Below are positions 7,085-57,750 of a DNA stretch of 64,000 nt, one piece after another. The DNA comes from Psilocybe cubensis. Its lineage: Eukaryota. Every line of letters begins with the position of its first letter. The first letter of the stretch is position 1. The DNA lies in contig CM039002.1 of assembly GCA_017499595.2 (NCBI GenBank), forward strand, positions 2,790,001 to 2,854,000, in the 5' to 3' direction. Below the pieces are notes generated by a model that saw nothing but the letters and a program-made list of their open reading frames with translations, was not told the DNA's origin and searched no databases. A program made the position numbers and the translations under genes.

Positions 7085-8102
7085 GCAATTGGTTGAGGGT
7101 GGGATTCTGTTTCACTTTTTTTTTTTTTTGGCCTTGTTTGACCGTTTGGTTTTATGATGTTTCTCGCTTTCCGACTCGTATTCGTGTGTCCCTCTTGTGT
7201 AATCTTTCCGTTTCTGTCCGAAATCTGCTACTGTTCCGTTCTCATCGTCGTGCTTGGTTCGTACTGGTTGTTAATGTTTTGTCTCCTCTCCGGTTGTTGT
7301 TACCACCGATCATTTTGTAAAATTTTCATATATTTTTCCTCCTTGCTTATTCGCTATCGGCGCCGTTTTGACCCTGTCTACTTCGCTCTCATATGTTCCT
7401 CTTCCCTGGTGTTCCTGTTCTCGACCGCGGCATTAGGTCGGTTGTTCATCTATGGTGTTGTCGTCTCCTCATATGACGCGCTTCATTAAATTGCATTTGT
7501 TCTTTAACTTGATTTGGTGTACCGAGTGCCTACTTTTCTCGTTTCATGGAGCTCCTCTTGCTTTGCTTGCTCTTTGCCTTTGCTCATCAACGTGTCGCTT
7601 CGCCTAGTTCACCTTTTTCGTGTTTTTATGCGTAGTGCGACCATCATCTGTCGGCTTTTTTTTTACATCAAATTTTGGTCCATCATTTTTTTTGGCGTCT
7701 TTAATCCCTTAAGGCAATCGCTCCTGTACAATGGTGTTTGCTCTTGGTACGCTCATCACGCGTAATATCTTATTCGTGCTGACTTGCTTGTCTCAGTGGC
7801 TTCGGGAGTGTGTATGGTATTCGCTAAAGGCGTTTCCACTCATCGCTTTCTATCGTACCGAGCGTTAGTCTTTGCATTTTTCTACTCCGTATCAACTCAT
7901 GGATTTTATTATCCTTTTTCTCTGTTTTTCATGTTTCTCCAAGTAGTATTTATCATGTTGAATTCTTGTGATGCTGTCTCATAACCTTTTCTATAAAACC
8001 TTGGTTTTTTTTTGTTTAGTGCTTTCCATCTTCGACGCTCTACCTGCCTCGAGCTCTATCATCTACAGTATTCCTAAGTCTCTTTATCGTTTCAATCACA
8101 TT

Positions 8103-11100
8103 ATGGTTTCCATCAACTCTGCTTATGCTCCTGCTTCTCCCAAGCCTACATATGCCGATGTGGTTGCTGGTGATCGCTCGCCCTCTGCTGAATACAAGTA
8201 AGCCGTTCCATGTTATTCTATGTACAGTTTATGATTTTAAACGTTGTGCGTTGTAACAGACATCGTCCTGCAAAAGGCATTCGCAACGTCATAATCCACG
8301 TCAAACCCGACAACAAAGAAGATTCTTTTTCTGTTGCCACTGACTCTGATGACGGACCGTTAGACAGCGTCGCCTCTCGCATTGCTGCCGCAAAGGTCGT
8401 CAAACCGGGGAACAAGACTGTTGCGTACGTGTATCCCATACTATCTTACCCTGTGTCTTCAATCACGCACGTCGTTTACATGCGTTCCTTCCGTTTTCTT
8501 ATCTCTGTATTGCAGCGGATCAGATGCGTTGGACAATTTTGTTAGGAAGACCAGGTCAACAAGTGGCTTGTATGATTTTAGCTGCACATTCCGCACTTTT
8601 TTTCTTTTGTTTTGACTACTTTATTGTCGTTATAGGAAACGCGATATCGAAGATGCTGCGCTCGTTTGTTCCGATGAGGAGTTGCCGTTAGTGAAATTGC
8701 AATCTGATAACCCTTATGTTATGCTGATATTTTGGTTTTGTTATATATTTACCTCAGAGCCCGAATTTCCCCTCCGAAGAAGAGTCGTACATCCGTCAGC
8801 GCGAACGTTGATGCGACTGTCAATCACGTATCTTACTCGAGTGATTCTTCGGTCGAAGTCATTCGAGTCGTCGATAATTCGTAAGTTTTACTGCTTGTAT
8901 CAAATCTCGCCATTATTTCGTTCTGCTTAATACCGTTGGATACTCTGAACAGAGCCAACGCCCGATATCAGAAGGGTATTAGTGATGCCATATTAGTCGA
9001 TGATTCATCCGCGGATGAAATGGTCTCTGTTCATCCTACCAGCGGGTATGTTTATCATTTACATCTTTTATGTTATTATGTCATACGTTCTCACATCCGC
9101 GTATTACAATTCGTGCTCCTGTCAGAGCAAAACCGAATAAACAGAAAGGCAAGAAGCCACAGAAGACAATGCCCCAAACGGTCCGTATCAAACAAGAGCC
9201 TGGCATTGTCATAAAGCAAGAAGCATCTGCTCGTCCCACGTCCGTATTGCCCTCTGAAGTTATGGTTAAGAAAGAGTCTGTCGATGTTCATATCCCTCTT
9301 GCACCGGATAACGTTGCGTCCACCCCCACAAAGAAAGACAAAGGAAAATCATCCGTTTCAAAGAAGGGCTCTGTTGGGATTCGTAGATCCGCTCGGCGTT
9401 CGGAAGCTGCGATCGAGCGAGTACCGTTCTCTTTTATTCCACATTGCGATTGACTGACGTCCTGCTCTTAGTCTGTCGGTGTCTCCGCTGAAGATTGGGT
9501 CTGAAATTTCTGGATCTGCTGTTTTGTCTCCACCCATTACTTTGCAGGGTGATGCTGATTCTGATATCAACCCCTTCTTGCCGTCACCTGAAGTCATTTT
9601 GGGCACCAAGTATGTGTATGCTCTAAAAGTCTACGTGAGCATCACTTAACTTGATTTACAGAATTCCAGGAAAAGGCAAATCCATTCGCATTGTTCTTCC
9701 CAGCGGTCCAATCGATCTTCACGAAGATGAAGCTATGATGTTTGCGTCAGTAATGTTCATTTGTGGTGTTTTTCTTTTATCACTTCTTAATCGGGTTTGA
9801 TCAGGCACGCGGTCAGAGAGAGTCGAATGCATCAGACCACTTATCCATCTTCCAATGCTCTCCCCAGCGGTCCTTCCTCTAGCAAGTTGCTCAAAGCGCT
9901 CGATGATGCGTATGAAAAGTACAGTGAAGCAGATGCTCTTAAAACCGAACATTCGACTTTGGACCCCCCTGTTCAATTTAAGGCGTCTGTAATAAGGTAA
10001 ATATCCGTCATGCCAATATATGTGATCGTCTTTATCTACCTTTATTCAACAGTGCCAAATCTATCGACGCGCATTCTGATGTGGTTATGGCCAGTCTTTC
10101 TGAACAGCCAAAAACTCGACAAGTGCAGTTTCAATCTTCTTTGACAGCTGTTCCAATCAATGCCGCTGTTGAAGCTCCCCCTACACCTGTCACTCCAGTT
10201 CGAGTTCCCCGCAAGTTCAAGGATGTTGTGCCTGCCGGTCCTGTGAACAAAACTCCCAGTCTTGGATTGAACGGGCCGGCTCTGATGGAGGATACCATGC
10301 GCTTCTCGGTCAAGTAAGTTAACGTACCCATATGTCATCTTCAATCTGTTGTCTGACTTGATTTGTGTCTGACCTTAAGACATCTGCCGAAGAAATGCGA
10401 AGTTACGAAGACAGATTTACAAGATAGTCTTTTAGAAAGCACTTACGTTGACCTTCCCAATCTTCAGTAAGTTTTTACCTTCTAAGATAATCGATGTTTT
10501 GTTTTGACTATTTCAAGGCATGGTATTCTCAAGCAATGGAACTCGCCTAATGTCATGGCACCAGTCGACTGTGTTTCTTTTTCTCTCTGCGGTGAGAATT
10601 TCCCTGAGATGAATTTTGAGTGAGTTTCGTAAAGCCTTTGCTATACTTTACTTAATGATGCGTATTGCTTACTCTCTCTACTATGTTATATAGAAACGCT
10701 TATGACGCTGTGACTTTTGTAAGGAACAAGAACTTTATCAATCCTTCGCGGGTTTCGCCTCTGGACGTCAGCATCCTGTATATGGGAAACGATCGTAAGC
10801 GTGCCACTTTGCAGTGCAACTCGGTGCCTGCTATCTGCCTGAGTGCAATTCTCACCCGCGATTCGTATCTATTGGAGCCGATATCCAAAGGACTGTGTAA
10901 CAAATTTTTGTCTGGTCACATGATGCACCAGGAGTGGGAACGCTTCGCTGGATTTGCTTGCATGGCGTTCGGACATCAGGTTATGGTAGCCTCTATCCGT
11001 GATAAGGCAATCACCTTTGGCACTATGGGAGTTAAATGTCAGTGGGCACATATGCTTACTTTTTTTTTTTTTTCTTTTTGTACTCACTCAGACACTCACT

Positions 11101-11570
11101 CAAATAGCGGAGCGGGAATCAATCTCTCCTTCAAAACCTCCTAGGACACCCGGCATACTTTCTGGACAGAAAGATGCCAAACTCCAAGGAGGAAGCCGAA
11201 AAGCACTTAAATCAAGCACCAGGTTCAAGACCATGATGGATTCAACCGACACTAGTAAGTTATCAACATTGTATGTGCTTCAAACCACTGACAATGTCAT
11301 ATATTAGTTCCCATATATGATTCACGTAACCATGCCTTCAATTTCAACACTGACCTCGACCGGTTAGACGAATTGCTACCTAGATGGCGTCGCGGAGAGA
11401 TTCCACCTAACTCCTTTGTTATGGTGGCGTACACTATGACTCAATACGAGAAGGAACGGTCATTTCATCTGTGTACCAACATACAGTATGCCGTTGTGTT
11501 CGGTACGGAACACGATACCAGCGACATAGAGGCAGAACAGGAGTCCTTTGCAGGTTTTGATGAAGACTGA
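8103..11570 (+). CDS. Element-borne multi-exon protein: disordered N-terminus plus C-terminal putative OB-fold/SSB-like domain with acidic tail
   Basis: Many short GT-AG introns link the ORF pieces; conserved-looking C-terminal blocks NFINPSRVSP, QEWERFAGFACMAFG, VPIYDSRNHAFNFNTDLDRLDELLPRWRRGEIPPNSFVMVAYTMTQY...LCTNIQYAVVFG; ends EHDTSDIEAEQESFAGFDED*. Confidence 0.65.
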
Positions 11571-11959
11571 ATATTTCATTAAACCTAATGTCTTTTAATA
11601 CACATAGTTATGGTATTATTTACATTCTCCTTGCTATCTGTTGTTATTTTTTGGTATCATATACGTCGCGTAGTCTATTACTTCAATGTTTTTGTTCTTT
11701 CTTCGTGTCATTTGTACTCTGCTTCCTGTATCTTTGAATATCCAGTTAGTATTCTGTCTTATCAACTGCTTCGTATCATATTCTACTTGTCTTCCGTACA
11801 AATTTCTCCCGATATAATAATACATACATATTATCATGGCATTACAGTTGGACATATGCTTTTCCTTTGCGTGTCCCCTCTGCCAAAATTTAAGCGCCCG
11901 TTGTCAATAATCGTACGCTACACAGAGTTACCCGGTGTTACCTGTTGTCAGTGTCTACT

Positions 11960-11967
11960 TATATAAA
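11960..11967 (+). promoter_or_regulatory. Putative TATA box of the RepHel gene
   Basis: TATATAAA about 140 nt upstream of the inferred ATG at 12103, followed by a pyrimidine-rich tract. Confidence 0.4.
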
Positions 11968-12102
11968 TCGAGGGTCCTCGATGCGATTCCTTTAATTATT
12001 CCTACACATTCCTCCCCCCCCCCCTTGATCGATCTCACACTCATATCCATCAGACTAGTGAACATATCTATTTACCTTGAAACTTACATTACTCTTTTAT
12101 AT

Positions 12103-15100
12103 ATGCTCGCCGCATCACTTCATTTCTACGCTCTTTTTATTTTAGTTTCTGGTTGGGGTGAGTTATCTTCTCCTTATGTGTACTGTGTATGATCTGACAT
12201 TTGTCGCTATTTTGTAGGAATCCTATGTGGCCACATACAATGTTGCATTAATGTACACTCCTTGAACGCATCCAATTATGCTGGTGATTCTCGAACAATA
12301 TCGATGCTTAGTAGTTGTATAGCTGTCAATCAACAGTTGTTTAAAACAAATAATTGGTCAATAGACTTTTGCTTACCCTGTGGGGAATTTCCAACCTACG
12401 ATGTTCGATTTCCTGGCAATAATCTATTGCGTAGTCGTACATGTACTAGATCTAGCAGCGTATCAAGTGGGCACAAAGTTTGTAGAGTGCGTCTTACTGT
12501 AGTATTAGTTCATGTTATGCATTGCTTGAATCGTACTACTACGTCCGCTTCTGAGATACCCGTCAAACAGTCCCACTCGTATGGAAATGTGCGTTTGTTG
12601 CACTCGCAATTTCGCCGCTTCATATATATTGATTGTCATTCAATGTCGGCTTATTTGTGGTTAAGATTCACGCCTGCAACGTATACACGTAGAGTTTCTA
12701 TTTTAGTATCTCTGTTGCTCCAACGTAATCATCTCAGGAAGTGGGAATATAATAGGTGCCTGGTAGCCATTTTGCCAAGATGCGCCTTGCATCAATTCAC
12801 GCTCGACAGACATTACACGCAACCTCGTCTTTGGTCAGAGAAATATCCCTTCATTAATATAGTATCGAAGGGCGTTCTAATGTATCCGTTTCAGTGTTCC
12901 TGGTTATTCGGTCTCAACTATTTCCACTACATCTCATTTACTGCTAATGTTTCTGAATGCTCATACTATCATCCTTCCGATGTCTTGCAAGGCGGAGGTG
13001 GCGGTGTTTCAAAGGTTGTCAGCTCAGAGATTTTGCGATACCGTGTGGTACAAGATACGGGATGTGCCTCCGTTCAAGCTAAAACTAAATACAGATTTGT
13101 GAAGTACCTTGCTACAGACGCTCACATTTCAACTTCCATTGACAATATATCTGATTTAATAGTTGCTAGGTTCTCTCTCTTTGACACTGCTAGTTGGCTG
13201 TCTGTTTCTGAAATTAGGTCTATTGCAAGTTTACATGGAGTGTACGGCATCAATTCAACCACAAATAGAGGCAATGCCATTGAACTTTTGCGTGATCATG
13301 TGTGCGGAACTTGCCTTCGTAATGTCTGTATTTTTGAACGTGTGGTATCAGTGTCAGATAGAAAAATTAAGAGCAATTCATCTTCTTGTAATCCAGATCG
13401 GCAGTTTGAACTTACAGACAGTGCTGTAAATTTTTCTCGCTTCGTTTCATCTGCTTTAATAGAAAGTCATATTGTACCCTATAGTGGCACAGCATCGTTT
13501 AATTATAGTGATACATACAAGTTCGTTAGGTATATGCCGTACATACGTGATTTAGAGTCATTTCTCTCTGCCGAAGCGTCCGCACCCCACAAACGCCGTC
13601 TAGTTCTTTGTCGATTTTCTATACAAAGTGCAACCAAATGGCTCACTTCAAGCGAGCTTCGGGATGTACTGAAAGAACACGGTATTACATCATTTAATTC
13701 CAAGACCAAAAAATCTGCTCTGATAAAATTAACAGATGGTCATGAATGTGGTATATGTTCCACTCATTTATATATCTTTGAGGCAATACCTAGTACAGTC
13801 AATTCAGAAGAGTCAATCATGCATAATCGTAACCAAAATGTTCTACATAAACGAGCATCTCGAGAACGTCAGAGGCAGGCAGGCGCAGAATCTGCTAATT
13901 CCGATGTTGACATGCTCAACGGTGATGCTTTTGTATCCACATCAGACTCTGACCACACTTCAAACGACCATGTGTTTCCGCCACAACCACCGTCAAAGCT
14001 TCTGATAGAGGAAATCATCAATGGATTTTGCGCTGATTCATCTGCATCTCTACTGGAGGAAGCAGGCTGCATGGTCTGCGGTCTGCTGCAGCCTTTGCAT
14101 AATTTAACTCACTTGTCTATGTTTGATCATCCCCTTGACATACTCGCAGTTGAGGGAGCTACCCGTGTAGAGAGATTACATCCTGACGACCCGGTGAAGG
14201 ACATCCCGGGCCCTGTGATCGATCCTGCATGTAACCATGTATGCGATACTTGCTCTGCTGCGTTGAAAAAAGGTCATGTGCCGAGACATTCGCTTGCAAA
14301 TCATTTGTGGTTAGGTAAAATACCTTCTCAGCTGCAAGATCTTTCGTTTGCAGAGCGCATGATGATTGCTCGCATTCGGCATAATCGCTGTCTGGTCAGA
14401 GTTTCCTCTGGGCGGGCTAAAATGACAGCAAATGTCATCATGTACTCTAATCCAACGCTGAAAGTGTATCATGAATTACCTCCTTCAAAGCCAGAACTTG
14501 ACGAGGTACTTGCCTTTATATTTACAGGACCAACCCAACCCACGGAAGAAGAGTTCAAGCGTAGTCCAATGCTAGTGCGTCGCAATAAGGTCGCAGATGC
14601 TCTGGAATGGTTGAAACTTAACCATAAGGATTATATTGATCTTGAAATATCCAAGAAAAATCTCCAGTCTTACCCGCTGATAGGTGTCCCCGTAGCTGTA
14701 GACTACAGACAGCGCAACGGTACTAATCGTATGGAGTCTACAATGAGTCTACACGACGAAGGCGAAGATGAAGGAACTGTAGACGGACCTTGTCCGTTTA
14801 CTGTCCATGGCTTGAGTGGAACAGACTATGGCAATATGTCCATACAAGCTTTGAAGGCAAAAGCCTTGCAACACATAGAAAATGAAGGCAAAATGCTAGC
14901 TATTGGGCATGATCCAAAACCGCAGTCTATGTACGATAATCCTCAGGCCTATCCGCAGATGTTCCCTTGGCTATTTCCTTACGGTTATGGTGGAATAGGT
15001 CAGCATTGTCATAAGCGTAAACTTTCAGAGTCAGAACATAAGCGAATACTGCTTATGCACCATGATAAGCGTTTCCAGCGCGACCTTTATTTTCCTATTA

Positions 15101-18100
15101 TTGCATTCAATCACGAGCAACTGAAAGGTGGCGTTACTGGTAGCTTTCTTGTTGCAAAACGCCGTAATTTTGATGCGATATCTAAAAGATTGCTCTCTAT
15201 AGACAAAACGGTTCTTCAAGACATTTCCTCTCGTCTTGTAAATGGGGACCATGTATCACCTGAAACAGACAGTGAGAAAGACTGTTACAAACTTTTAGAT
15301 GATCTTGACCACGTTGGAGGATATGTTAAAGGGTCAATCACGTCTAAAAAGTATATGCGCAATGAGATATGGTCTTTGCTTTCTTTCAAAGGTTGCCCAA
15401 TATGGTTTATAACCTTGTCACCTGCCGATAACAGACATCCTATATCAATATATTATGCCAAAGAACAGCTGACCTTTACACCAGACATATTACCTTCTTC
15501 TGAAAGGAATAGACTGGTTGCACAGAATCCCGTATCGGCTGCCCGTTTTTTTCATCTCATAATTGAATTGTTTATTAAACACGTGCTAGGCGTCGGATCC
15601 AATATTCATCGAGGTTTGTATGGTAAAACTTCAGCGTACTATGGTACGGTAGAACAGCAGGGAAGACTCACCTTACATTTGCATATGTTACTATGGATTG
15701 AGAATTGCTTGTCTCCACAGCAAATCCGTGACCGTATTATGAACAACGACTCTGCATTTCAGGCGAGCCTTCTATCATATTTGGAAGGCTGTCATCAAGG
15801 CGAATTTCTTACAGGAAACATGCAGACTGTTAAAGACCGCGTGCCACATATTTACGACAAAGAAATTGATGGACTTCATTCAATTATACAAGAGGATGAC
15901 GAGGCTGTAAATTCCAGTTACGCAGATCCGACTCTAACACTCCCTATACCGGTAGAACATGCTTGTCAAGATTCCAATGGTCCGGACCACTGCACATCAT
16001 GCATTTCTAATGCTGAATGGTGGGACAATTACGAAACTACAGTCGATGATATCATATTGAAGTCCAATGTGCACAGATGCACTGTTTCATACGGTCAGCA
16101 AATTGATGACCCTGACGGATCAAAAGGTATAAAAAATATGCCTAAGGGCCCGAAAGGTTGCCTGGATTGGAATGGAAATTGTAAAGCACGATTTCCGCGA
16201 AGGCTGTACGAACAGTCTCAAGTCGATCACGTCGACGGTCACATATTTTTGAAAAAGTTGGAAGCGATGTTAAATACCTTTACTCTTCCGCTGTCGTACC
16301 TCACAAGAAGTAATACCGACGTGACATGTCTGTTGTCGGGTACTTCGATAAAAGCAATAATATATTATATATCAGACTATATTAGCAAACCCGCATTGAA
16401 AACGTATCAGATATTTACCTCTATGTATGACGTGTTTGAACGTGAAGAAAAAAAAGTTAAAGACGATGTCAAGATTGAAGGTAAAGACGCAGGCAGAAGG
16501 TTGATGCTTAAAATTGTCAACTCTCTGTCTTCTAAGATGGAGATAGGTTCTCCGATGGCCTCCTTGTATTTATTGGGCAACCCTGATCATTACACTGATC
16601 ATACCTTTGTACCTTTTTGGTGGAGAAGTTTTGTAAGTGACGCAAGGAGCAGTCATAAATCCGGTATCACTGATGACCAAGCCGCCCACCTACCTACCGT
16701 AGAGGATCTAGAAAATGCTGAAGATGAAGAACAGAAAGTTATATTAGCTCGACATGACGGTCATTATGTAGGTTCTAGTAATGTAGATGATTATAAATAC
16801 CGCCCAGTCACTCAAGAAGACATGTCTCTATTCGACTGGATTAGATCTTATGAGCGCCGTAAGCTCACTAAAAATGAAATGGAGCGTTTGCGTAGTGAAA
16901 CACTCACCTTCGAAGATGATCATGCGTCCGACATACGTGAAGGCGGGGGGATGGAAGATTTCATTGATGCATGTCTTGGTATACCTGCAGATGATGATTC
17001 TGATCAACGTGTTAAATATGACGGTGTGCGAAAAAATATTAAAATAAACAAAAGAAGTTTTGAACGTTTCACTGAGGAGCACCCTCTTTATTCCACTCAC
17101 GTAGTCAAATGTGACTCATCCCGAGCGCACAATATTGTCCCCAATTTTCTAGGCGGTCCCCTTCCACGGCGCGACAAAGGCGACAGAGAGTATTATTGTT
17201 GCAGTATGCTGACCTTGTTCAAACCTTGGAGGTCTGGGTTAGATTTGAAATCATTGCATCAGACTTGGGAACATGCATTCACCATTTACGCTTTTTCCGA
17301 CCGACAGTTGAAACTAATGGATAACTTTAATCTGCGATATGAATGTTTAGACGACAGAGACGATTTTCACGCACAGTTAAGAAGGAAAGACGGAGAACAA
17401 CAAGATGTTTACACGGATGAACTCTATCCTGATGGTTGCGGTCTCGACGATCAATACAACGACTTTGTCGGCCTTGAATTCGGTGAAGATCATTTAGATT
17501 ATGAAGAGATTGGTGAGGCATACCGCAGAGAGGTGTTGTTAAAGCGAGAAGTAGATGGCATCATACAATCTGCAGGATTGTTTTCTAACGCCTCTAGCGA
17601 TGTTACATGTCAAGAAGTCAGCATGTTCAGGCCTGCTGAATACAAGACGCATACGAGCTGGGCATCTCTAATAAAAGCTGAAAAAATTAGACTGTTTAAA
17701 CAGAAGTTGTCCGGTTACGTGCCTTCAGATCCCTCAGATGATATAACAAACATTCATATTTCCAACGAAGAGTCTACTAATGACGTCAAAGTAGTTTCTT
17801 CGGATTATCTGCTCAGGTCGTACAAGGCAAAGCAAATGGAACATAATGTGTTAGTAGATTCTACAGTCGCCGATTTCACCTTGAATACGGAACAGGAAAG
17901 GGCTTTCCGTATTGTTGCCAATCACGCTAGTTTGCTGTCGCCTGGTCAGCTGAGGATGCATCTCGGTGGCATGGGCGGTACTGGCAAAAGTCAAGTGATC
18001 AAATCTATCATTCATATGTTTGAGTCGAGAGGCGAATCTCACCGATTTGTGGTTCTCGCACCCACAGGTACCGCTGCTGCACTCCTCAACGGATCTACTT

Positions 18101-20619
18101 ATCACAGTGTATTAGGAATACGGTCCAAGTCGGATCGTGGTCAAGACTTTTCAAAAAACGAAGTCGCAGTAATAAATGACGTACGAGCTCGATTAAAGGG
18201 TGTCAAGTATATCTTTATTGATGAAATATCTATGCTGTCGTCGAGGGATTTATATGCCATTAGTAGACGTCTGTCACAAGTGTTTAACGACGATACACTG
18301 TTCGGAGGTATATCAATGATCTTAGCTGGTGACTTCGCTCAGCTACCGCCGGTAGGTAATCTCCCCTTTTATAGTCCTTCCATTAAACATACGCAAGACG
18401 CTCGCATGAAGGTGTCCGAGCAAGAAGCTACTCTAGGCAAGATATTCTGGCACCAATTCACGACTGTCGTTATTCTAAAACAAAACATGAGACAAAAAAC
18501 GCAGACTGAGGAAGACGCAAAGTTGCGCACTGCACTTGAAAACATGCGGTATGCCGCCTGTACAGACGCTGATATATCGTTCCTCAAGTCAAGGTTAGCT
18601 TCTAAACTGACGACTATTGAAGGTAAACCTATATTGACTGACCCTGCTTTTCGCAACGTATCTGTTATCACTGCGTGGAATAATCAAAAGGATAGGTTCA
18701 ATGAGCAGGGCATCGCAAGATACGCTAAAGAGAGCGGACGTACATTGCATCATTTTTTCTCTGTCGATAGTCTGGGTACACAAGAAGGAGAAACTCGCAG
18801 GCCTCGCGGACGACCATCAGGATCGTCTAAAGCAACCAAACAGACAAAGATGTCCCAGCGTCTTCAGGAAGCCCTATGGGGTCGCAGCGCCTGTTCTAGC
18901 GAACAAGTGCCAGCAAAACTTTCTCTGTGCGTAGGTCTGCCAGTTATGATACGGCATAACGACGCCACAGAGTTGTGTATCACTAAAGGACAGGAGGCTG
19001 TCGTCGTAGGATGGGAATCTTCTGTTGGTGCGTTTGGTAGACCTGTACTTGATACGCTGTTCGTGGAATTAATCAGACCGCCGAACCCTGTATCATTAGC
19101 TGACTTGCCTGTTAATGTTGTTCCACTTACGCGAACGTCGTCTCGAGTAACATGTACTCTCAAGTCTGGCACAAAAATCAATGTAAACCGCCAGCAGGTA
19201 TTAGTGCTGCCCAATTTTGCCATGACCGATTATTCGTCTCAAGGTAAGACGCGAGATTATAACTTGATACATTTAGATCATTGTAAGGATCATTCGTCTT
19301 ATTACACCTGTGTATCTAGAAGTTCGAACGCCAGTGGTACCATCTTACTCGGTAGATTCGATGCGTCTAAGATTACAAAGGGTATTAGTGGGCACCTGCG
19401 CCAGGAATTCCGTGAACTCAATATATTAGATCATATCACCACCATGAAATACAATGGACAGCTTCCAGACGGCGTGTTGCATGGATTAAGGAATCCGACA
19501 ATTCGGTCTTTCATGCTTCTCGACGTATCGCAATCCATTGGTACAGACTGGCATCCTACCTTGGCAGTCTCTTCATCAAAGCAGCTTATCAGAACTCCGG
19601 AAAAGGACGGCACCTGGTCTCTCAACAGTGTTAAGGCAATTGTCACCGACAGGGCAAAAGATAAGCGCAATAAGCGCCAACCAATTCGCTCAGACTGTAT
19701 AGGACCGAGGAAACGAATGTTGCTAAGCACACCCTCCGAGTTTGCGGTCCTACCTGTAGGTACAAAGTGGGACGCGGACAACTACAGTTGCAGTTACGAC
19801 TCCATCTTTACCGTGTTATATAACCTATGGATAAGTGCACCTGAGATGTGGACCAATAGATTCAGTGATTTGACACCGTTATTAGACAGACTCAGCGGAC
19901 AATTCGCACTTGTGCAGAATGGATCAATTTCTCTAGAGAGCGCACGAAACGACGTCAGAAACGATATGCACTCACGCAGCCCGCTTGATTTTCCTATGGG
20001 TCCAAATATGACATACATTGACAGAGTTATGACCGCTGTGATGGGCCAGCGATCTTCTGGAATGTCTGTTCTCGTGTGCAGTAAATGCGGCTACAATGAC
20101 CAAAGACCCGTAATGCGACTAGGCGAATATATAAGTGTGGCACGCACTGGCGTTTTCCACGACGACTCCCAGGAGGTGTCTTCTATTTCAGACAGTTTAG
20201 GTTTTAACCTGAGCGATGCTCAACGATTGAGTTCGAAGAATTGCCCTTCGTGTGCACAAAATCAGCATATCGTATATATGTCGCTATGCCATAAGGTTGA
20301 ACGATTACCTTACATTATGACAGTGGATATATGCTCGCCACGGTTTGCTATAAACCCTGATATTATGTTCAAATCGGATAGTTTCAACGTAGAGTATAAG
20401 CTTACTGGGGTTGTCTACGGCGGGCAACATCATTTTGTTTCTCGGTATGTTGACCTGCAAGGGGACGTGTGGTTCCACGACGGCATTACTACTGGAAATA
20501 GATGCGTAAAGGAGGGTAATGTTCATGACCTTGTTAATGATGTATCTCAATGGCTACGCATTTCCGTAAATGGGGGAAACTTGAAACATGCATTGTATGC
20601 TATTTACGCGAGGGAATAA
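12103..20619 (+). CDS. Helitron RepHel protein (DUF6570-like + HUH Rep + Pif1 helicase + C-terminal USP-like peptidase); exon 1 12103-12157, intron 12158-12217, exon 2 12218-20619
   Basis: 8.4-kb stop-free ORF. Rep motifs PIWFITLSPAD, YYGTVEQQGRLTLHLHMLLW (HUH) and YYISDYISK; Pif1 motifs GMGGTGKS, LAPTGTAA, IFIDEISM, GDFAQLPPV, QNMRQ, FAMTDYSSQGKT, YTCVSR; DUF6570-like LANHLWLGKIP..LQDLSFAE and VRRNKVADALEWLKLNH; C-terminal NYSCSYDS and HHFVSRY..WFHDG. Confidence 0.92.
13015..13790 (+). repeat. Internal ~140-aa domain duplication in RepHel (helix-extended-helix-like segment plus H-x-C-x2-C)
   Basis: Copy 1 KYRFVKY...ARFSL..TASWLSVSEIRSIASLHGV..INS...LLRDHVCGTCLRNVCIFE; copy 2 TYKFVRY...CRFSI..ATKWLTSSELRDVLKEHGI..FNS...LTDGHECGICSTHLYIFE. 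Confidence 0.75.
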
Positions 20620-21221
20620 GATGAAAATTTATCCAAAGTGTTTTATGGTTATGGAGGCCTCAGTTGATACATGCTCAGATAACAACTGTTTATATTCATA
20701 TCAGTATGGTATTTATCGTTCGATAGTGTCGCAGCGTATCAGTCTATTAGACTCAGCTGTATAATCTGAACCCATAGACTACATTGCATCGAGCATCGTG
20801 TGGTTGAAAGGACGATCCAAAAGCGTGGGAGAATGTCGTACATGTTCCTTTAATACCTTCGCATCAAAGGGATATCGGAACTTGCCGAAATTTCGTTCAC
20901 CGCTCTGTTTAAGAACTGTGCCTATCCGACTTGAACACCTTTTTCGACGTTGTCATTTGCTGCCACATCGTACCAGTATTCGTATCTTCAAGGCTAATAT
21001 ACAATATTTGTTAGGCTGTAGGTTATATTACGATATATGATAGAAATATTGATGGTATTCTAAATGTGTTCAAATCGATAGTTCATTTTGAAGAACACCT
21101 TAAACCTGTCAGCGACTGCTTTGCAGAGTCGTTGCTTTAGTATGTCTATATCTACTCACGCAATGCTATACATATAAACGGCAAATTTTTAATTTTTTTT
21201 CTGCTTCTTTTTAGACTACCT

Positions 21222-23925
21222 ATGGCTCCCAACCCATTCTTGGACTTAGAAGCGAATGTCGATCACGGAGATTCAGAGGATGGTTCAGCCGAATCTGACG
21301 AATTTGGTGCGCATAATATTTCGTTTTACTCAGTCTCATGTCATTCCAACATACGAGATAAACCAAATTTACTCGCAGAATGCTTCATCGACGACGGAAC
21401 TCAATCCCATGAAGATTGTGACGGTTCATCATCTGTGGCAATGGACAAACCCATTCCTGTTACAAAGAGAGACCGACTGGCCCTCGTAATTCAACAAATT
21501 GAAGAGAGAACACGTGGTAGATCTCACTCACTGCCCGCCTCTGATATGTACCGGGGTGTGGAACCATTGTATTCAAACGCTGACAATCCTACTGTTTTGT
21601 CACCGCACGGAAACACTGATTCGGGCTTCGAAAATCTGCCCACGGACTATCCTACATGGAGGATTGGATGTAAAGTAAGTTTAATACCATCGAATTAAAT
21701 TTGTGTGTTGCCAACCATATCGATGAACAATACGTAAGGTCGGATACGAAGAAATCGCGGTCGCTTCTTTACTCAAAAACTCGCGCCGAGAACATCATAT
21801 TCGGTCCGCGTTTTCACGCAGTTCTGTACATGGATACATATACTTGGAATGTTTGATGGATCAGCCTATGATTGACCTTATCAAAAGATCGCCCGGCATC
21901 ATCGTAAAAACTACGGACGTGCTCCTGAGTCCGATCGATAAGAATGAGGCTCAGCAACTGTTGTACATGGGAGGGGACATTACGAACCTATCGGTCGGAA
22001 AATGGCTCAAGGTTAAACGAGGTGTATACAAAGGCGATGTAGGCTTTGTCGTTTCGAAAGGATCGTGGGGGGTGTCAATGCTTATGATCCCCCGTTACGA
22101 GTACGTGTCCACCAAAACGAAGTCATCTCGTAAACGGAAGACATACACTGCGGTGCCCGCGCCTAAGCTATTCGATCCGACAGGCCTTCGTAACTCTCAT
22201 TTATACATAGAATCAGGCAGAGCATCTGTCTATCGCGTAGGTGATCTGATCTTTGAGCATGGTTTGGCCCGGGTGGACTACGATCCCAGACACGTTGCCT
22301 CATGTCGTGAAGGTCTGAGTTACGTGACGTATACATCATTTTGTATGAGTGGGCATCCCGCACTCCATCACGCGCCGATACCAAAGCCAAAGGAATGGAT
22401 CATGCGAACCATGGAATGGGTGGTAATGAGATCTACAGGTTGGCTCGGAGTCATTGCGCAAGCCGACGACGATAATATGGTCGATGTCGATATATACAAC
22501 AAAGGCTGCGACCATGACGAAACTGGTCAACATTACAACGAAACTGAAATCCACAGAGTTGATACAACTACGACCCAGCTGTTGACAACAATACGCACCG
22601 TATGGAGTGACATCTTAAAACATTTCGAAATAGGGGATTACGTAGGGGTTGACGCTGGCGTTAATGCTGGACGATCGGGTTGGGTCGTGGACATCAAGGG
22701 AGATGAAATACAACTAATCGATAAGCAAGGCACTACAAAAGACCAGCAAATCAATACAGCCGACTCGATGTTGGAGGCAAGTATTTGTCATTTAACCGTA
22801 TATATACTCTGGCTCATGCATACATCTCAGATTATATATATGCACAGGAATTTCGTTTCTCTGGGAGATGCGACGACATGTCAGCCTTCATCGCTCCTCG
22901 CGCTTATCCCAACATCACACACGACCCGATATCATCGTTGGAAAGGTGTAACTGTGATAGTGAGCAAGGTACATCATACGTTCAAAGGCTTAATCGGCAT
23001 TGTCGCCGAGGTACTACAGTCCGTAAGCCCAAGAACAGGTCAACCTGAGTTGCGTTTAGTTGTAGAGCCGACTCGATATGATCCGTCGAATCCCTTCAAG
23101 AAAATTGTTTTGAACAGAGACGACGTACTGGAATACAGGTAAGCGTATTTCATTTACCGATTTGTACTCGCGCTCACGGCTTGTAGTACCTTTGAGCCTC
23201 TAAGCCTGTCGAAGACGTATGATTCGAACGCTGTCCACCAGTCTCGTAACTTCGCCAACCCATCGATCATAATAACCACAGGAACTGAAAGCGCTGACAG
23301 TGGCAGACATACACCATTGCCTGATACTATTGAGGACACCTCGCCTGCGTGGGATCCATCTGACCATTCAGAAGATTTAACAAGCATTAGCATAGGAACC
23401 GTCGTCGTAAATTCAAGCGACGGTACCAACGTTGCATCTTTAACCACTCCTTGTAATCTTTTGTTGAAACGAGAGCTGATTGGAGTTCCTTTGACGGTGG
23501 AAGAGGCAACCGTCGATGGACACGTTTCTCCGTTGTTTGTAATCGTTCAGGAGGACGTGGATGGGCAGCTGTGCATGATGCGATTTACACCCAATTCGAA
23601 GCGGACGTTACGGATTGAATCGACCCATATAAAGCCCAAACATCCTACCATCAAGCACGACTTTGGGTTATTAGCCATCATTGAAGGAGAACACGCGGGT
23701 AAATGCGTCAGACGTGTGCATTCTAGGAAGGATACCAATGGCGTGGTATTGGTGGTCAAACAAGTACTGCCCACTGATCGAGGAGCTGATCAAATAGTGG
23801 ATGGCGAGCTATTGACGCCAACCGAAAATTGTTGTGTGGCCTATGAAACTCAAAAGAGAAAGAATGCTAATCGGAATCAGATGAGACACGAACACGATAT
23901 TTACATTAGTACTCATTTGCCATAA
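21222..23925 (+). CDS. Spt5-like protein (acidic N-terminus, NGN domain, multiple KOW motifs), element-borne, about 5 exons
   Basis: NPFLDLEANVD...FIDD acidic N-terminus; TWRIGCK/VGYEEIAV...IRSAFSRSSVHGYIYLE (NGN); KOW-like GKWLKVKRGVYKGDVGFV, GDYVGVDAGVNAGRSGWVVDI, TFKGLIGIV, IIEGEHAGK; TSPAWDP resembles an Spt5 C-terminal repeat unit. Confidence 0.78.
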
Positions 23926-24099
23926 TTGTTTACTGTATGTCATATGTGTTGTATGCTCTACAATGTAACCAATACAGACATCCTCATCAACGAGTTATAA
24001 AATATATATATAGCATGCAACTATCTATATAACACTGAACATTCATGTATCGACTGCGCTAATTGTGTGGATTGATACCATGCACTGGCATACGGTTTA

Positions 24100-25441
24100 C
24101 TAGTCGTCGAACAAACTTTCCACAGAATTATTGGGCGCCCTAAACTGTATGTCCTTGCCTGAATCTTTGTCACTGTATATCTTGGAAGCGTTGCGATCCA
24201 CTGCCTCTGCTATATTTGCCAATGTTTCGTGATTTACCGCATCGGTCATCGGTTGGAGACGATTGTGTTGAATAACATCATGTCCTGCAGCGGTGGTTGG
24301 TTGGAGACGATTTAGTTGAATGACGTCTTGCCCCGCAACTGGAAGGCGGGTGCGACGACCTTTGTTGCTTGGAGGTCCCGTGATGACGGGCACATTGATG
24401 GCCAATAAGGACACGAGGGCCTGAGGCAGAATGAAGCAATGTTGTAGATGATGGTGTAGATAAAGAACTCACAGTAGCGCTTAATGCATACACAACTAAC
24501 ATTGGATATTGTTGAGCTAACTTGACGTAAATCCCGAACCACACGGCGCTGGACAGCATTATGAAAACGCTGCTGTTGTAACCTAACGCGAACGGCACGC
24601 CAACGGTGCGTCAGTCTGAAAAAGGACACGCGGGTTTCTACTATTAGTATAGTCCAGCTTCGTCGAATAATCAAGATATCAGCAATGAGTTCAGCTATAT
24701 AGCAGTCAGCAATGGGCAGTCGATTAGATGAAGTGTGACTTACCTATAAGAGAAAACAACAGCAGAATGTAAGGTGGTTGGCATGGACACACAGTATCCG
24801 ACTTGCAATCGGTGTTGACCTTGCACACAAATATGGCGAAAGTGGAGAAGATAATGCCGATTGCGATGAATATGACAGCGTACAGCCAGCCCCATAATAC
24901 ACGGAGTTGTTTGGCCTTGTGCAGTCGATTCGGTGATAGCACTATACTGGCGCGGGAGACCCTGGACAGCGCATTCGTAGTAATAAGTGGCCATGCTTGT
25001 TGTGGAAAGTGACTACGCACCACAAAACTATAAAGAACGCAAATAGTTCGACTCGGTAGGAAACAGGAAGGGCGGTAGGTGTGTCGATGGCTATACATAG
25101 CAACCCCATGATATATGTCAATCAATGTAAAATAAAAAAAGACTGGCTACAAAAAGAAAAAAAAAAAAAAAAAAAGTATCACAACGCACCCAATTTAAAC
25201 AATGTGAGGGCAATGACAAAGTCTGCAACCACAGCCACAGCCGCCAGCCCATCGTCGTACCAACACCGTTTGTCGCACCGCCTGATAATGAGCCTGAAGA
25301 CGACCAAAAAAATGGCCAAGGCATGGCTGAAAGCCAATCCGTATGCTGCGACTGTAAAATAAAGAGGAAACAAATAAGTTCGTTAGTTTGTTGTTAGAAA
25401 AGGTTTACGAAGAATGCTGCCTTACCTATATTTACGTCCAT
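24100..25441 (-). CDS. Pth11-like (fungal rhodopsin-domain) multi-pass membrane protein, element-borne, possibly truncated
   Basis: MDVNI/VAAYGLAFSHALAIFLVVFRLIIRRCDKRCWYDDGLAAVAVVADFVIAL (R-L..R....W.DD motif), SRVSRASIVLS, further hydrophobic helices WLYAVIFIAIGIIFSTFAIFVC and VFIMLSSAVWFGIYV; exons bounded by GT-AG. Confidence 0.6.
24251..24340. repeat. Two-copy 48-nt tandem repeat in the C-terminal tail of the Pth11-like gene
   Basis: GGTTGGAGACGATT recurs at 24251 and 24299; encodes QDVIQLNRLQP / HDVIQHNRLQP on the minus strand. Confidence 0.7.
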
Positions 25442-25679
25442 TCTTTGTTCGCTGGTTTTGAGGGGCCGCAGATGCAGGTGATGGTAAGAAGTTGGCGGGA
25501 TACAAATTACGTGGCAAATGGAAAATGGGAAGGCCACCATATATGGACTTTCGTCGCTGGTCACGGATTGTTCGGCATTCAGAGCGCGGGCTCCAAACGG
25601 AAATCGGACAAGCGAACATTGGCTGATAATGCTGTTTACGGGCTACTACAACATCGAATCAGCGACTCAGACGCTGTAG

Positions 25680-26568
25680 ACCATGAGAAGCCATGATTGA
25701 ATGAAAGCCGAGACAGATATCACGCCCTCTTGTAGGCGATGGTGAGTAAATTTCAAACATAATCAGGATATAAAAGCTTACGATGTCATACGCGCATGAC
25801 TCTGGACATGATAAACTTTAACTTTACACCAGGCGACCTACCTGAGATGTTGTCCAATATACAACGGCATTCTGGTATATGGTGTCCGTTGCTAGGAGTT
25901 GAGATAAGTGTCATAATCGAGAGTATCGCCAGGTGTCGAAGACTCACCCGAATCGCCCAGGTCATCGATACGAAGGCCATCTTGATACCGACATGAACAG
26001 ACTCAGACTCTGCATCGACCTCCAAACGAATATTTATCCGAACGAACCACTACAAGCCATATCAGTCACACTCGATGCGGTGCAGGTGCTACGGAAACGC
26101 TTTGTTTGATATAGGTCATCTTGAATACTCGTTCAGCTCGGATAGCCTGTTCGAAACAAACCTACGACGTAGGTATGGTTTATTCTTAAGCGCATTTATA
26201 TGCTGGTGTATGGTTCATAGGTGTGGCATAATGATTTTGGTCCATTGAAGTGCCCTGTTGCGCGCAATTGTATTGCCTGACGTTACACCGCAGATACAAA
26301 GACCCCAATAAATGTCCATAGTCAAGAGGCGGACTATCATGTTGAAGTACTGACACAGAGGTAAGTCTTTTCACGTTATTTGTATCACCCTCTCTAGACT
26401 TACTTGGGATTCCTTCACGAACACGTAAAAAAAAAAAAACTGACAACGTACGAAGCCAACTAATAACATCTGCAGATTTTGCATTAAGCCACCGCATTTA
26501 GACATTTCAAATATGGGTACGTACCATGGAATACAACTTTGATCTAGGAATTTCAACTTCTCCAACAT
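25680..26568 (-). CDS. Hypothetical multi-exon cargo gene (structure uncertain)
   Basis: ATG at 26568 (MLEKLKFLDQ...), short ORF pieces separated by intron-like segments with poly-T tracts; no recognisable motif; 3' end approximate. Confidence 0.3.
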
Positions 26569-26750
26569 GCCGGGTCGTATCGTGTTGTATACACCTCTTA
26601 TTGGAACTACCTATTATTGTGAGTGCGAAACTATACGGTGGATACACAGCAAGTCATACAGACTTTAGCGTTTAACAGTTGGCCAGACGCCGTCTTAATC
26701 CGTATCTCGCGTCCCATGCGTTGTAAATGTCTTGTGTTTTTTTGCTGAAG

Positions 26751-28562
26751 TTAGACGACCCATCCATTTTCAGCATGTCTCGGACGAAGGTCTATGAACA
26801 CATTGAAACTCACGACAGTACGCTCGACGTGCCACATTGCAAACACCGACTCCCGTTTAAGCAGTTTTTTACGGAAACTGGATGGGTTGAAGAGTAGGCG
26901 GTGTACAAAGAAACTTTGATCCATCTCTGTTTGGGTGATTTGAGGTTGCACGGTTGCTGAATTCCAAACCAATACACGCGCTAACGTCCGTCGGACCGCA
27001 TTTTCTATGCTATATGTCGGTGCGTCTATTGACGTTGTCCCAGTTAGGTGTGCACCGACAATGTATGAGTAAGTGTGTTGCGGACTGGTTGATCGAACCC
27101 GGATCTCTATTTGTATGTGAGTGCCATGCTATGTTGACAATATAGGGTGAAACTCACGAGCGCCTAGCAGACGGCAATTAATCTCACAGTCTCGCACCTA
27201 TCCGTTCGTTTGTCGTAAAGACGTTGACCAAGGTGGATGGATGGTGCAAAGAGACACGAGCACTCAAATGAAAGTATATTTCAGAGGATACATTGACACT
27301 CACGGTAACACAGGCATCACGGTACATTCTTCCATCCTCTTCATACGGTTACGAGCTGTTGATCAACTATGGTTGGAGAAGTTGGAGGATGAGGGAGCGG
27401 GCGAATCTTTTGTGGTGAAGAGTATCATTGGATGGAGTGTACTGAAGGTGCGAGGTAGAAGGACTGCGTGCTGATGAGGGCACTGTTGCCTGTTGAAGAC
27501 GCACATTCCTCTAGTGCACACAATTGTACGGCCATTAGCAAATGTGAAACAAAGGTAACACCTGTAAGCAGTTCTGAGTAACGGAAGTGGACAGTAGGTA
27601 TTTTGGTAGATCACATGCCTGTTCAGTCCGCTTCCGGGGTTCTGTTGTGTGCATTGCGTACACTCCTCTATGTCTCCTATATTCCATTCACATCCTGCTA
27701 TGATCTTCTTCCGTACACTCCGTGGTTTCTGACGCAATGCAACATGAAGTCGTTTAGTTTTATGCCAAAGTATTTGAGAGTCAACTGACTTATAAATGCA
27801 GTGTGATCAACAATTTTCAAAGTGCCCTCGACGGTCTGGGCGGTACGCCTCTCTATCAATACAAAAGAATCCTGACAGTAAGTAGCACCCAAACAACTTT
27901 CCCCCTCTTAGATTGTTGCGCCACTGATAACCTCAAGCAACTTTTAGGGTGGAAACCATGCGATACCAGTCACTTTTCTTCATTTCCGTCAACGGTCTAC
28001 TGCGGTCAAACTTGTATCGAGTGGTATGAGACACTATAACATGACCGAATCCCCTCGATGCACTACTGAGAGAATACGGTACAACGGGTATAATCGATAT
28101 TAGTTGTCTGGAATACATTGATTCAGGTGAGAGACCGATTGCACGGTGAAAGTCGATGTATACTCACACTCCTGACTGTAGACGAGCTTGGACTGAGATC
28201 GAACGAACGAAAATAAACGGACCCTCACCGAAGCCGGTTGACAGCACGTTGGCTGTCTATCCTTCAGAACATATACTGTACTACGAATTAACAGAAAGTT
28301 AATGAGTTGAACGGGCAACGGGAGGATTGTTGCACGCCTGAACGGAATGTGCGTTTGCATTCACTGAAGGCGTCAAAACGAAGTTTGTTCTACGTGCTAA
28401 CCTCGGCCCATATAATATACAGCTTATCTCAACATCTGTTGACACAGGTCTGACAAAATCATGCTTTCGAACATCCACCCAGTTTAACAGATATGGGGAA
28501 AATATCGTGGCGAGGTGAATTGCTCCTCGCTGTCTTGTTGATTGAAACGCCTCCACGTTAAC
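26751..28562 (-). CDS. Hypothetical cargo gene(s) or fragments (structure uncertain)
   Basis: Several minus-strand ORF segments with plausible splice sites (e.g. poly-T CAAG acceptor near 28563); no family recognised. Confidence 0.25.
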
Positions 28563-28779
28563 CTTGAAAAAAAAAAATTCAGGAGAACTGTCACTGCCTT
28601 ACATCAACGGTATACCAAAACACGACCGCGCAAACTAACGACCGCTCCATAACATCGATTGTATGCACGCCCCATCGGTGCAGGCAACGATATCATCGCG
28701 TCGGACTTCAAAAGCCTACGTAGCACGTGCTTGCATATGTCAACGACCAAACATCTGGTTAGCGAAGTTCTACTTCTAC

Positions 28780-29461
28780 ATGGACGTCTTGCACGACAAC
28801 GCTACGGAAAGTAGTTCCTACAAAAGAGCTATCGCAAGGCGTAACGCCCTACTGAGTGACCCCTTGGCAGCATCGGTCACTGAGAACTCAGTGGAGTGTA
28901 AAAGTTGCGGGAAGAGCATATTACTGTCGAAGAAATGGCCCTTCGACCCTCAACATTGGACAAAGCATCTCAAGAGATGCGATTTTACGAGACATTCGAA
29001 TAACCACAAGGTGAGTGCGAACCATCATTAAGGACACTTTTAATTTTCGTTAACATACATTGTGTAGAGCCGTTCAAAAATTCAAATCAACAGACGGAAA
29101 AAGAGTAACTGCAACGGTCGGGCAAAGTCGTCAGCGAGGTCGATGACAGAATCAGTGCCTCCACGGCCAATAACCTCAAGCAACTCAATTCAAGAGACAG
29201 CCTCATCAACTTCACTATCGATGAAAGAGCCATTTCAACTACCGTCAACGAGGCTGATAGTAACTAGCAAAGGCAACTGTAGGTTTCCCAAACACGAATT
29301 CGTACTCTACACTGTCTAATTATAATGCAAATACAGATTTTCAGAATTTGATGGATCAGTATACTGTACGATGTCATCCTGACGTTATCACCAGGCCTCC
29401 TTCATGGGATCGCGAAAGATGGGATTGGAGTAATTTGAAGCAGCCTAGATTCGACGATTGA
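28780..29461 (+). CDS. Small zinc-finger protein (C-x2-C...H-x3-C), element-borne, 3 exons
   Basis: RRNALLSDPLAASVTENSVECKSCGKSILLSKKWPFDPQHWTKHLKRC; last exon HPDVITRPPSWDRERWDWSNLKQPRFDD*; GT-AG introns after about 29010 and 29270. Confidence 0.6.
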
Positions 29462-29595
29462 ACTGGCGTTTACAGTACACGCAACTTAACATAAATATTT
29501 ACGTAATGTTTATGATGTTCTTATTTATATTATACAATATGATGATATCAGTATCTAATCTTATCATAGGGTGAGGGAAATCAAGGACTCGTATC

Positions 29596-29625
29596 GCCGT
29601 GCGAAGCAACGGCCCTCAACTCAAG
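29596..29625 (+). terminator. Helitron 3' rolling-circle terminator hairpin and putative terminus
   Basis: GCCGT-GC-GAA-GC-A-ACGGC stem-loop followed by CCTCAACTCAAG then T; the spacing matches Helitron 3' ends, with CAAG in place of canonical CTAG. Confidence 0.7.
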
Positions 29626-30196
29626 TTAGATCATGTGTGACGACCCCGAGTAGATCTAAATATGGCCAACGCCAATACCTGCAACTTTGGCAACCTATGG
29701 GCTGTTTTAGGAACTGTTGAGTAGCAAGGTAGCAATCGTGGTAAGTGGTGAGTGTTGGTATCGGCAGGGTTCTAAACATTGACTGTTTCTTCCAAGCCAA
29801 GTTTGTGAAGAAACTTTTGCTATCTACGAACACGACGTACCTGTCGAACGCTTTCACGTCGATCCTGTACAAGTGCGGCTAGCATAGTACGAGCTCATCA
29901 ACGATGCTACCATTTAGCCATGAGATGCGTCTATTCGGGTTTCCCGCATGGGATGGATCTTTCAATGACTCCGCTTTGATGGATTCTTTGCAACAATGCA
30001 CTAATGGCCTTGCCCTCGTCTAACATGTCTTCATAATTTGACCACATGCTTCGGTCCGAACATACTGTCTCGTTTTTTACATCAGTACATCTGTTACGAC
30101 TTACGATCCGTGCAAGAATCACTCCAAGCCTGTGCTCGACCTCTCGAACCCTATAAATACAGGGTAAGTCAATGTAAATGTACTGTAGCTTTCGAG

Positions 30197-57650: not shown

Positions 57651-57750
57651 GCCCGCCTAGCTCAATCGGATAGAGCGTCAGACTCTTACGGCGGGTTTCT
57701 TCCTTCCCTTTGACATCTGAAGGCTGCGAGTTCGACCCTCGCGGTGGGCT
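57651..57750 (+). tRNA. tRNA-Lys(CTT) with canonical intron
   Basis: GCCCGCC acceptor stem pairing with GGTGGGC, D arm TAGCTCAATCGGATAGAGC, anticodon loop CT-CTT-A followed by an intron, T arm GCGAGTTCGACCCTCGC. Confidence 0.93.

Follow-up and report, generated by a model that had tools for sequence, protein, structure and literature searches.

An intact USP-fold protease and a Gly-Gly-ending leader in an Agaricomycete Helitron2-type transposase suggest self-maturation of the RepHel polyprotein

The 64,000-nucleotide stretch of Psilocybe cubensis DNA analysed here (the window) carries an HLE2 (Helitron2-type) element whose RepHel transposase ends in a USP-fold cysteine protease domain and begins with a leader that closes on Gly-Gly. 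By analogy with coronavirus polyproteins, the pairing of an intact protease with such a leader points to a transposase that matures by cutting itself. We consider it somewhat probable that the C-terminal protease removes the leader at Gly-Gly and thereby matures RepHel; for this reading we infer catalysis, the cut, its cis or trans mode and the role of the leader. In one clade of HLE2 transposases from Agaricomycetes the protease is a constant component, and the conserved site and the altered substrate-binding residues of the domain bear on what it may cut.

The transposase, its element and its relatives

The polyprotein is encoded on the forward strand, to which all gene, domain and residue positions below refer, by one stop-free frame (12193..20619; 2808 aa from stop to stop). 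Its parts would be translated in the order leader-Gly-Gly, HeH-zinc repeat(s), DUF6570, Rep, Pif1 and protease. The leader (12193..13005, about 270 aa) is hydrophobic and acid-poor and ends L-Q-G-G-G-G-G; the Gly-Gly motif, the predicted cleavage site (12985..13005), has the form hydrophobic-[G/A]-G-G across the family. Two copies of a HeH/SAP-like domain with an H-x-C-x2-C motif follow (12997..13785; aa 269-383 and 418-531; HeH E 5.8e-6), and their homologue stands at the N-terminus of HLE2 RepHels that lack the protease. Then come DUF6570 (14269..14667; Pfam E 1.3e-39), the Helitron_like_N/Rep region with its HUH motif, LHLH (15049..15693; Pfam E 5.3e-33), the Pif1-like helicase (17881..19527; Pfam E 5e-27 over aa 1897-2108, with the last motifs reaching to about aa 2445) and, in frame with Pif1, the protease domain, which makes up the last 289 aa (19750..20619). 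The motifs that the earlier note quoted from this terminal part, after Pif1, are all present, in frame, in this single stop-free ORF. Helentrons carry an AP endonuclease at the transposase C-terminus; after the helicase no Pfam match to this mark of a Helentron sensu stricto was found, and the ORF ends with the protease.

The element occupies 6215..29627 on the forward strand and is 99.97-100% identical to other genomic copies. Full copies are about 24.2 kb long; other copies share 804-806 further bases upstream of 6215, and this first ~0.8 kb of the element is not readable in the window. The 3' end (29584..29627, forward strand) consists of an inverted repeat, a small hairpin and a terminal ...CAAG/TT. 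The 10-bp subterminal inverted repeat (29584-29593) is complementary to bases 3-12 at the 5' end of other copies. The hairpin (29596-29613; -5.5 kcal/mol, z -0.3) is not significant by energy alone and, though energetically weak, lies where it is expected in HLE2, after the right subterminal repeat. Since DUF6570, an HLE2 marker domain, is found together with a 10-bp subterminal inverted repeat and then a 3' hairpin, we place the element in HLE2, following PMC11417382. The last 50 bases of the element are common to 7 further loci at 86-94%. GTT stands at both element ends in all junctions seen, and the insertion border, which in HLE2 lies between T and T, is placed approximately. Within the shared 23-kb block lies a Spt5-like (NGN + KOW) passenger gene (21141..23925) with weak Pfam matches (Spt5-NGN E 2.7e-4, KOW1 E 1.5e-3); fourteen other ORFs in or near the element gave no Pfam match apart from HeH.

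A search of the genome (46.6 Mb, 21 contigs) returned seven copies with a 100% identical protease domain, five of them with the full 2808-aa frame, and three more distant protease loci, one with an intact 2781-aa frame. Five different left and four different right flanks were seen among the copies, and the five left flanks imply at least five insertions. A 2.8-kb right flank is common to three copies, in two of them up to an assembly gap, and one left flank is common to two copies; part of the seven may therefore have arisen by duplication in the assembly. Several copies are intact and nearly identical, and the element has recently been active and multiplied.

The fusion of the domain to the helicase was followed in relatives selected by the Rep region alone: a search with it gave 556 long proteins, of which the best 120 were taken, a set independent of the domain. 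Nineteen of the 120 end before the last helicase motifs. The protease domain is present in 96 of the 101 with a complete helicase end, about 330-410 aa after that end (two are cut short within the domain), and the other five stop 4-106 aa after the helicase. The best 150 matches to the domain itself comprise 64 of at least 400 aa and 86 shorter ones. Sixty of the 64 have the helicase upstream, one has the linker only and three have neither; 84 of the 86 are without a helicase and may be either fragments or stand-alone genes. Pairwise identities of the domain track those of Rep and helicase (Spearman 0.6), consistent with co-inheritance of the three. Only 1 of 97 linkers from helicase to protease contains a further Gly-Gly site, which makes release of the protease from RepHel unlikely; to judge by sequence, the enzyme probably stays within the polyprotein.

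Named relatives come from the Agaricales (Psilocybe, Flammula, Gymnopilus, Galerina, Mycena, Favolaschia, Tetrapyrgos, Ephemerocybe, Pleurotus) and, beyond them, from the Hymenochaetales (Phellopilus) and Polyporales (Trametes). As most matches are unnamed, the host range of the protease-bearing family may be wider.

Fold and conserved residues of the C-terminal domain

The earlier note had proposed a USP-like structure for the C-terminal domain, and structure prediction bore this out. The AlphaFold2 model, built with 103 aligned relatives, reached a pLDDT of 95.4 and a pTM of 0.92, and in it the USP-type thumb-palm-fingers papain-like fold of the last 289 aa is confirmed. The 42 matches listed among the top 50 ranks of a Foldseek search against the PDB were all USPs (E 1e-10 to 1.5e-8). 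Over the whole domain, VIA-align gave Z scores of 16.9 for USP12 (rmsd 5.2, 248 aligned), 16.7 for USP46, 16.3 for USP1, 15.9 for USP54, 15.8 for USPL1 and 15.7 for CYLD (rmsd 3.5, 221 aligned). In a search independent of Foldseek the top 36 matches were USP-fold chains (Z 11-17), followed by coronavirus PLpros (Z 8-11). Giant-virus USPs were the best matches among viral models, and in the Atlas unnamed basidiomycete clusters came first, with PF00443 clusters at 0.90-0.94. A profile of 48 short members matches the USP12 fingers (E 0.005), and in this match the zinc-ribbon cysteines align to those fingers.

Assignment to VTD, OTU, calpain or Ulp1 was set aside: none of these appeared among the best 50 matches of the fold search, and the USP matches span the whole domain, although absence from the best 50 is not a formal exclusion.

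The residues expected of such an enzyme can be placed individually (domain numbering). Cys14 (codon 19789-19791) lies within GTKWDADNYSCSYDSIF, His228 (20431-20433), followed by Phe229, within YKLTGVVYGGQHHFVSRY, and Asp244 (20479-20481) within WFHDG; Tyr223 (20416-20418) stands five residues before His228. The halves of the zinc ribbon are CSKC (C110/C113, residues 110-113; 20077-20088) and CPSC (C165/C168, residues 165-168; 20242-20253). In the predicted model helix 14-29 begins with Cys14 and strand 228-234, second in the palm hairpin, with His228, while Asp244 comes after strand 239-243; Cys236, His456 and Asp472 of USPL1 occupy equivalent secondary-structure positions in the published description (PMC8983731).

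At E<=0.001 the domain is matched by 1114 representatives of clusters at 50% identity. In an alignment of 153 sequences taken from the best domain matches, conservation is 146/147 for Cys14, 143/144 for His228 and 139/143 for Asp244, and 151/151, 145/151, 141/144 and 142/143 for the four zinc cysteines. Given the number of representatives and these conserved residues, the motifs are not due to chance. The Rep-selected set agrees (Cys14 96/96, His228 94/94, Asp244 93/94, zinc cysteines 93-95 of 96) at a median identity of 29% in the protease domain versus 57% in Rep. Of the N-x-x-C Cys box in the earlier note the Cys stands, and the Asn is weaker than described, since its position holds Asn in 60/96 and Asp in 30/96. 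Asp8 is kept in 88/96, so that any assignment of the oxyanion-hole residue is tentative.

Taken as part of the leader-removal reading, the domain is moderately likely to be an active cysteine protease with a Cys14-His228-Asp244 set and zinc-ribbon fingers; here, too, it is catalysis that we infer. The element might instead carry a catalytically silent USP-fold scaffold or zinc-binding module, on the model of Pan2 or Sad1. The usual oxyanion Asn is indeed not conserved, and the pseudo-USP Pan2 is within the fold list (Z 11-14), but Cys, His and Asp are nearly invariant despite 29% domain identity, and we regard a silent domain as very improbable.

Sequence searches with single proteins see little of this kinship. 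Pfam gave no match of note in the last 290 aa of the query, PF00443 included; among 103 members PF00443 reached E<=0.1 in two (best 3.8e-4), below the cut-off for UCH. Searched singly against PDB sequences, the domain gave no meaningful match, and a hit to Rrp40 (E 0.9) was dismissed as noise.

The leader and the Gly-Gly motif

The search for the Gly-Gly motif was anchored on the first H-x-C-x2-C motif, independently of the glycines, with the expectation taken from shuffles. Among the 87 proteins with enough N-terminal sequence (33 of the 120 are without the anchor or the sequence), 81 have [A/G]GG 90-105 aa upstream of the first H-x-C-x2-C, against 0.96 expected. A first-domain profile, partly circular because it was built from motif-bearing sequences, finds Gly-Gly ahead of the first copy in 102 of 104 proteins; P3 is Gly or Ala in 99/102 and P4 hydrophobic in 76/102. 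Ahead of the second copy the glycines are present in only one of the nine duplication-bearing proteins, the ORF of the window being among the nine. Because it is mostly missing there, the motif marks the leader junction rather than the repeated domain. A splice signal or other DNA-level origin is unlikely, as codons differ between the two copies compared (two DNA sequences only) and Ala replaces Gly at P3.

In 67 of 86 relatives the leader is 150-520 aa long; Cys, Phe, Tyr and Leu are frequent in these leaders, Asp and Glu scarce, and a weak R...HD[F/Y] motif of the RNxxRKHDF type is kept in 31 of the 67. The leader frame of the window has 0 stops versus 12-21 in the five other frames. An Atlas search with the leader returned no match.

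Five protease-less HLE2s were compared, three from this genome (L067, L068 and L069) and two from metagenomes (L075, complete, and L079, its N-terminal part), while the metagenome relatives L076, L077, L078 and L080 were left out as too broken or short. None of the five has Gly-Gly upstream of the first domain or a long in-frame leader. L067 and L075 start with a homologous first domain (E 5e-11 and 3e-9), and the first Met of L075 stands 100 aa before the zinc motif, which is where the predicted cut would fall. As elements with and without the protease fall into separate clades, the co-occurrence of protease and motif amounts to about one or two independent contrasts, and an upstream exon is possible in L067, L068, L069 and L079.

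Two further observations touch the leader junction. The same motif would arise if a Gly-rich hinge joined leader and first domain, which counts against leader removal. A complex prediction for the domain with leader residues 240-285, in which the alignment was not used, scored 0.02 versus a mark of 0.34 and counts neither way.

Substrate contacts and relation to known proteases

USP-fold enzymes cut after Gly-Gly, the ubiquitin site being L-x-G-G. Ubiquitin USPs hold the LRLRGG tail with two blocking loops, a His at least five residues before the catalytic His, a Tyr after the catalytic His and a conserved Gln, and in USPL1 these contacts are missing, Tyr451 replacing the His and Phe457 following the catalytic His (PMC8983731). 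The Helitron domain resembles USPL1 in this respect. In the Rep-selected set Tyr occupies His-5 in 93/94, with a Tyr-His spacing of five residues in 94/94, which leaves no second blocking loop in any of the 94; His+1 is Phe in 83/94 and Tyr in 11/94, and the His-Asp spacing is 16 in 85/94. The KRF motif is absent at the USP12 position in the profile alignment of the family, and no conserved Gln was found in the 153-sequence alignment. As far as these residues tell, the domain is not a canonical deubiquitinase and has lost the ubiquitin-tail contacts in the manner of USPL1. The description in the earlier note of a catalytically complete USP-like domain thus holds for the predicted fold, the motif order and the conserved Cys-His-Asp set, but not for canonical ubiquitin-tail contacts.

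The USPL1-type features signal the loss of these contacts without proving SUMO specificity. An isopeptidase for SUMO (or another Ubl), similar to USPL1 and countering SUMO-dependent silencing, would account for Tyr at His-5, Phe at His+1, the His-Asp spacing of 16 and the lost blocking loops, all common to USPL1 (peptidase C98), a compact USP fold without blocking loops (PMC8983731). USPL1 also ties among the top folds (Z 15.8), and other Helitrons carry SUMO protease domains of the Ulp1 type (PMC11417382). Its Z score is, however, not above those of ubiquitin USPs, and the shared features are a loss of ubiquitin-tail contacts, not a gain of SUMO contacts. Moreover, PF15499 matched neither the query nor, among the 25 families listed (of 57), any for the 103 members, and the Helitron domain differs from USPL1 in its 15% identity and in being transposon-borne. 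We find such an isopeptidase quite improbable.

Compared with USPs at large (USP/UBP, MEROPS C19, PF00443; USP12, USP46, USP54, CYLD), the domain shares the thumb-palm-fingers architecture (Z 15-17, 220-257 residues aligned, rmsd 3.5-5.5 A), the Cys-His-Asp order and the split CxxC...CxxC zinc ribbon. It differs in its 8-16% identity, in Pfam matches below the cut-off, in having no blocking loops and no KRF, in Tyr/Phe for His/Tyr and in its fusion to a transposase. That it is a deubiquitinase only, acting on RepHel or on host silencing or chromatin factors, with Gly-Gly as a hinge or a host-enzyme site, is unlikely, though less so than a SUMO isopeptidase. Among solved structures, ubiquitin USPs come closest in fold (USP12 at Z 16.9, USP46 at 16.7), and both the profile match to the USP12 fingers and the Atlas neighbours with PF00443 point the same way. 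VTDs from zebrafish Helitrons have Ub and NEDD8 as substrates (PMC9741609), and animal HLE2s of subgroups c and d are reported to contain UCH domains (PMC11417382). Against this, the LRLRGG-tail contacts are replaced (Tyr at His-5, Phe at His+1, no second blocking loop, no KRF, no conserved Gln), and the co-occurring Gly-Gly site is left unexplained. Because the Gly-Gly site is conserved and the ubiquitin-tail contacts are replaced, we favour self-processing over deubiquitination of host chromatin, the two functions between which the earlier note had left the choice.

In the favoured reading of leader removal, the protease would recognise the leader by its terminal hydrophobic-[G/A]-G-G, much as USP-fold enzymes recognise the L-x-G-G of ubiquitin and PLpro its polyprotein sites. 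The hydrophobic leader would be cut off, leaving RepHel with an N-terminus that matches the one in HLE2 relatives with neither leader nor protease. As long as it is attached, the leader would render the transposase inactive, mislocalised or unstable, and the cut would serve as a maturation switch; like PLpro, the enzyme may also act on conjugates of host ubiquitin or SUMO. The wider picture, in which a fungal transposon clade makes a virus-like polyprotein self-matured at Gly-Gly, the protease is a new ubiquitin-independent or dual-use USP branch and the leader is a self-released transposition brake, seems to us evenly balanced between true and false.

The zinc-ribbon fingers of USPs grip the folded ubiquitin-like body and are unneeded for a linear peptide. 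The domain keeps the full zinc-ribbon fingers subdomain, which counts against leader removal; with the fingers retained, a folded Ub-like substrate may still bind, which makes dual use plausible.

A precedent is PLpro, a USP-fold enzyme that processes a polyprotein at LXGG and also deubiquitinates (PMC7417481). Both are USP-fold proteases inside a polyprotein with its own hydrophobic-x-Gly-Gly site (fold Z 8-11); the Helitron fold is closer to cellular and giant-virus USPs, its host is a DNA transposon and one site is predicted.

Proteases on Helitrons have been described before. In animals, the VTD domains of Helentron ORFs act on both Ub and NEDD8, and OTU is carried in addition by 121 of these VTD-bearing elements (PMC9741609). 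The HELIANO survey lists UCH (PF00443) and Ulp1 among 20 extra domains, with UCH enriched in HLE2 subgroups c/d, mostly of lungfish and axolotl, and counted among separate-ORF domains (PMC11417382). The label 'calpain-like' of the earlier note was not met in the Helitron literature available. That the experimentally tested Helitron-borne proteases, the VTDs, are true deubiquitinases counts against leader removal. All of these are papain-like proteases of Ub/Ubl type on HLE2, the VTDs lying within a Helitron ORF as well. The Agaricomycete domain differs from animal Helentron VTD/OTU in its USP-fold family, its host and its conserved candidate site, and from HELIANO UCH in its fusion at the RepHel C-terminus rather than in a separate ORF. 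A cysteine protease was not found in the Pleurotus RepHel ORFs in the available part of PMC4289320, and the literature on Helitron proteases covered here, with most subscription papers and Repbase reports outside its scope, describes no fused USP-fold domain or Gly-Gly leader in fungal Helitrons. Helitron-borne proteases of deubiquitinase type are thus already published; the fused fungal form with its own Gly-Gly site appears new.

As to the role of such proteases, deubiquitination has been shown for VTDs (PMC9741609), and cleavage of RepHel subunits, by OTU, has so far been a matter of speculation (PMC4067079). A candidate enzyme and a candidate site in one protein make self-processing directly testable. 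The domain also defines a large unannotated USP-fold family, with more than 1100 clusters at 50% identity, which has lost the ubiquitin-tail contacts as USPL1 has; substrate change within the USP fold can be studied there in a natural case. UniRef labels two Ephemerocybe relatives 'USP domain-containing protein', so automatic annotation has occasionally caught the family.

HLE2 families with and without the protease

The same P. cubensis genome encodes a second intact protease-bearing HLE2 family (2781 aa), located on contig C3 (G000:C3:3683249-3691541; L013:699-9041, minus strand). Its protease domain shows 32% identity to that of the window's element, and its own leader ends in L-M-G-G-G. 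Another HLE2 family is present in five copies (L067:2628-8501 and four further loci matching Helitron_like_N, the Rep domain of Helitrons), and its 1958-aa RepHel contains neither the leader motif nor the protease, which makes this family a natural control for experiments. In the G000:C10 copy of the window's element (L029), about 2.2 kb have been deleted internally (window-equivalent 11498-13712); the missing segment includes the leader with its Gly-Gly motif and the greater part of both N-terminal repeats.

In three related gene models from Mycena and Favolaschia (P0039, P0109, and P0080), the protease domain is N-terminal or internal and is followed by 400–480 unannotated residues. These proteins may have been rearranged or domesticated, or the gene models may have fused separate genes.

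Passenger genes

The element carries an Spt5-like gene with NGN and KOW domains (window 21141-23925). Two other sets of this gene, each of five equal-scoring copies with 35–37% identity, are found elsewhere in the genome, together with additional broken copies. Since none of these adjoins a Helitron_like_N match found in the genome search, the Spt5-like gene may also be the cargo of other mobile families. Several spliced-looking passenger ORFs occupy window positions 8192-11307 and 24100-29031, and a Pfam search with them gave no match.

Element ends, flanks, and insertion sites

The last 50 bases of the element (window 29578-29627) match seven other loci at 86–94%, and two loci match the 3' end over 228 bases at 69%. 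All of these loci are probably non-autonomous or related HLE2 ends.

The right flank (window 29628-32442) is identical in two other copies, L034 and L036, as far as their 100-base gaps, and L034 contains another piece of the element past its gap. This exact sharing and the extra piece reflect either assembly duplication or 3' read-through. A duplicated gene in the right flank (window 30391-31396 and 32318-33324, 65% alike) is 77% similar to the left flanking sequence in two other element copies, a hint that members of a single gene family have served as insertion sites.

Elsewhere in the window, a 100–130-base repeat occurs in three copies, one of them inverted (57651-57752, 58073-58192, and 62717-62842; 81–88% alike).
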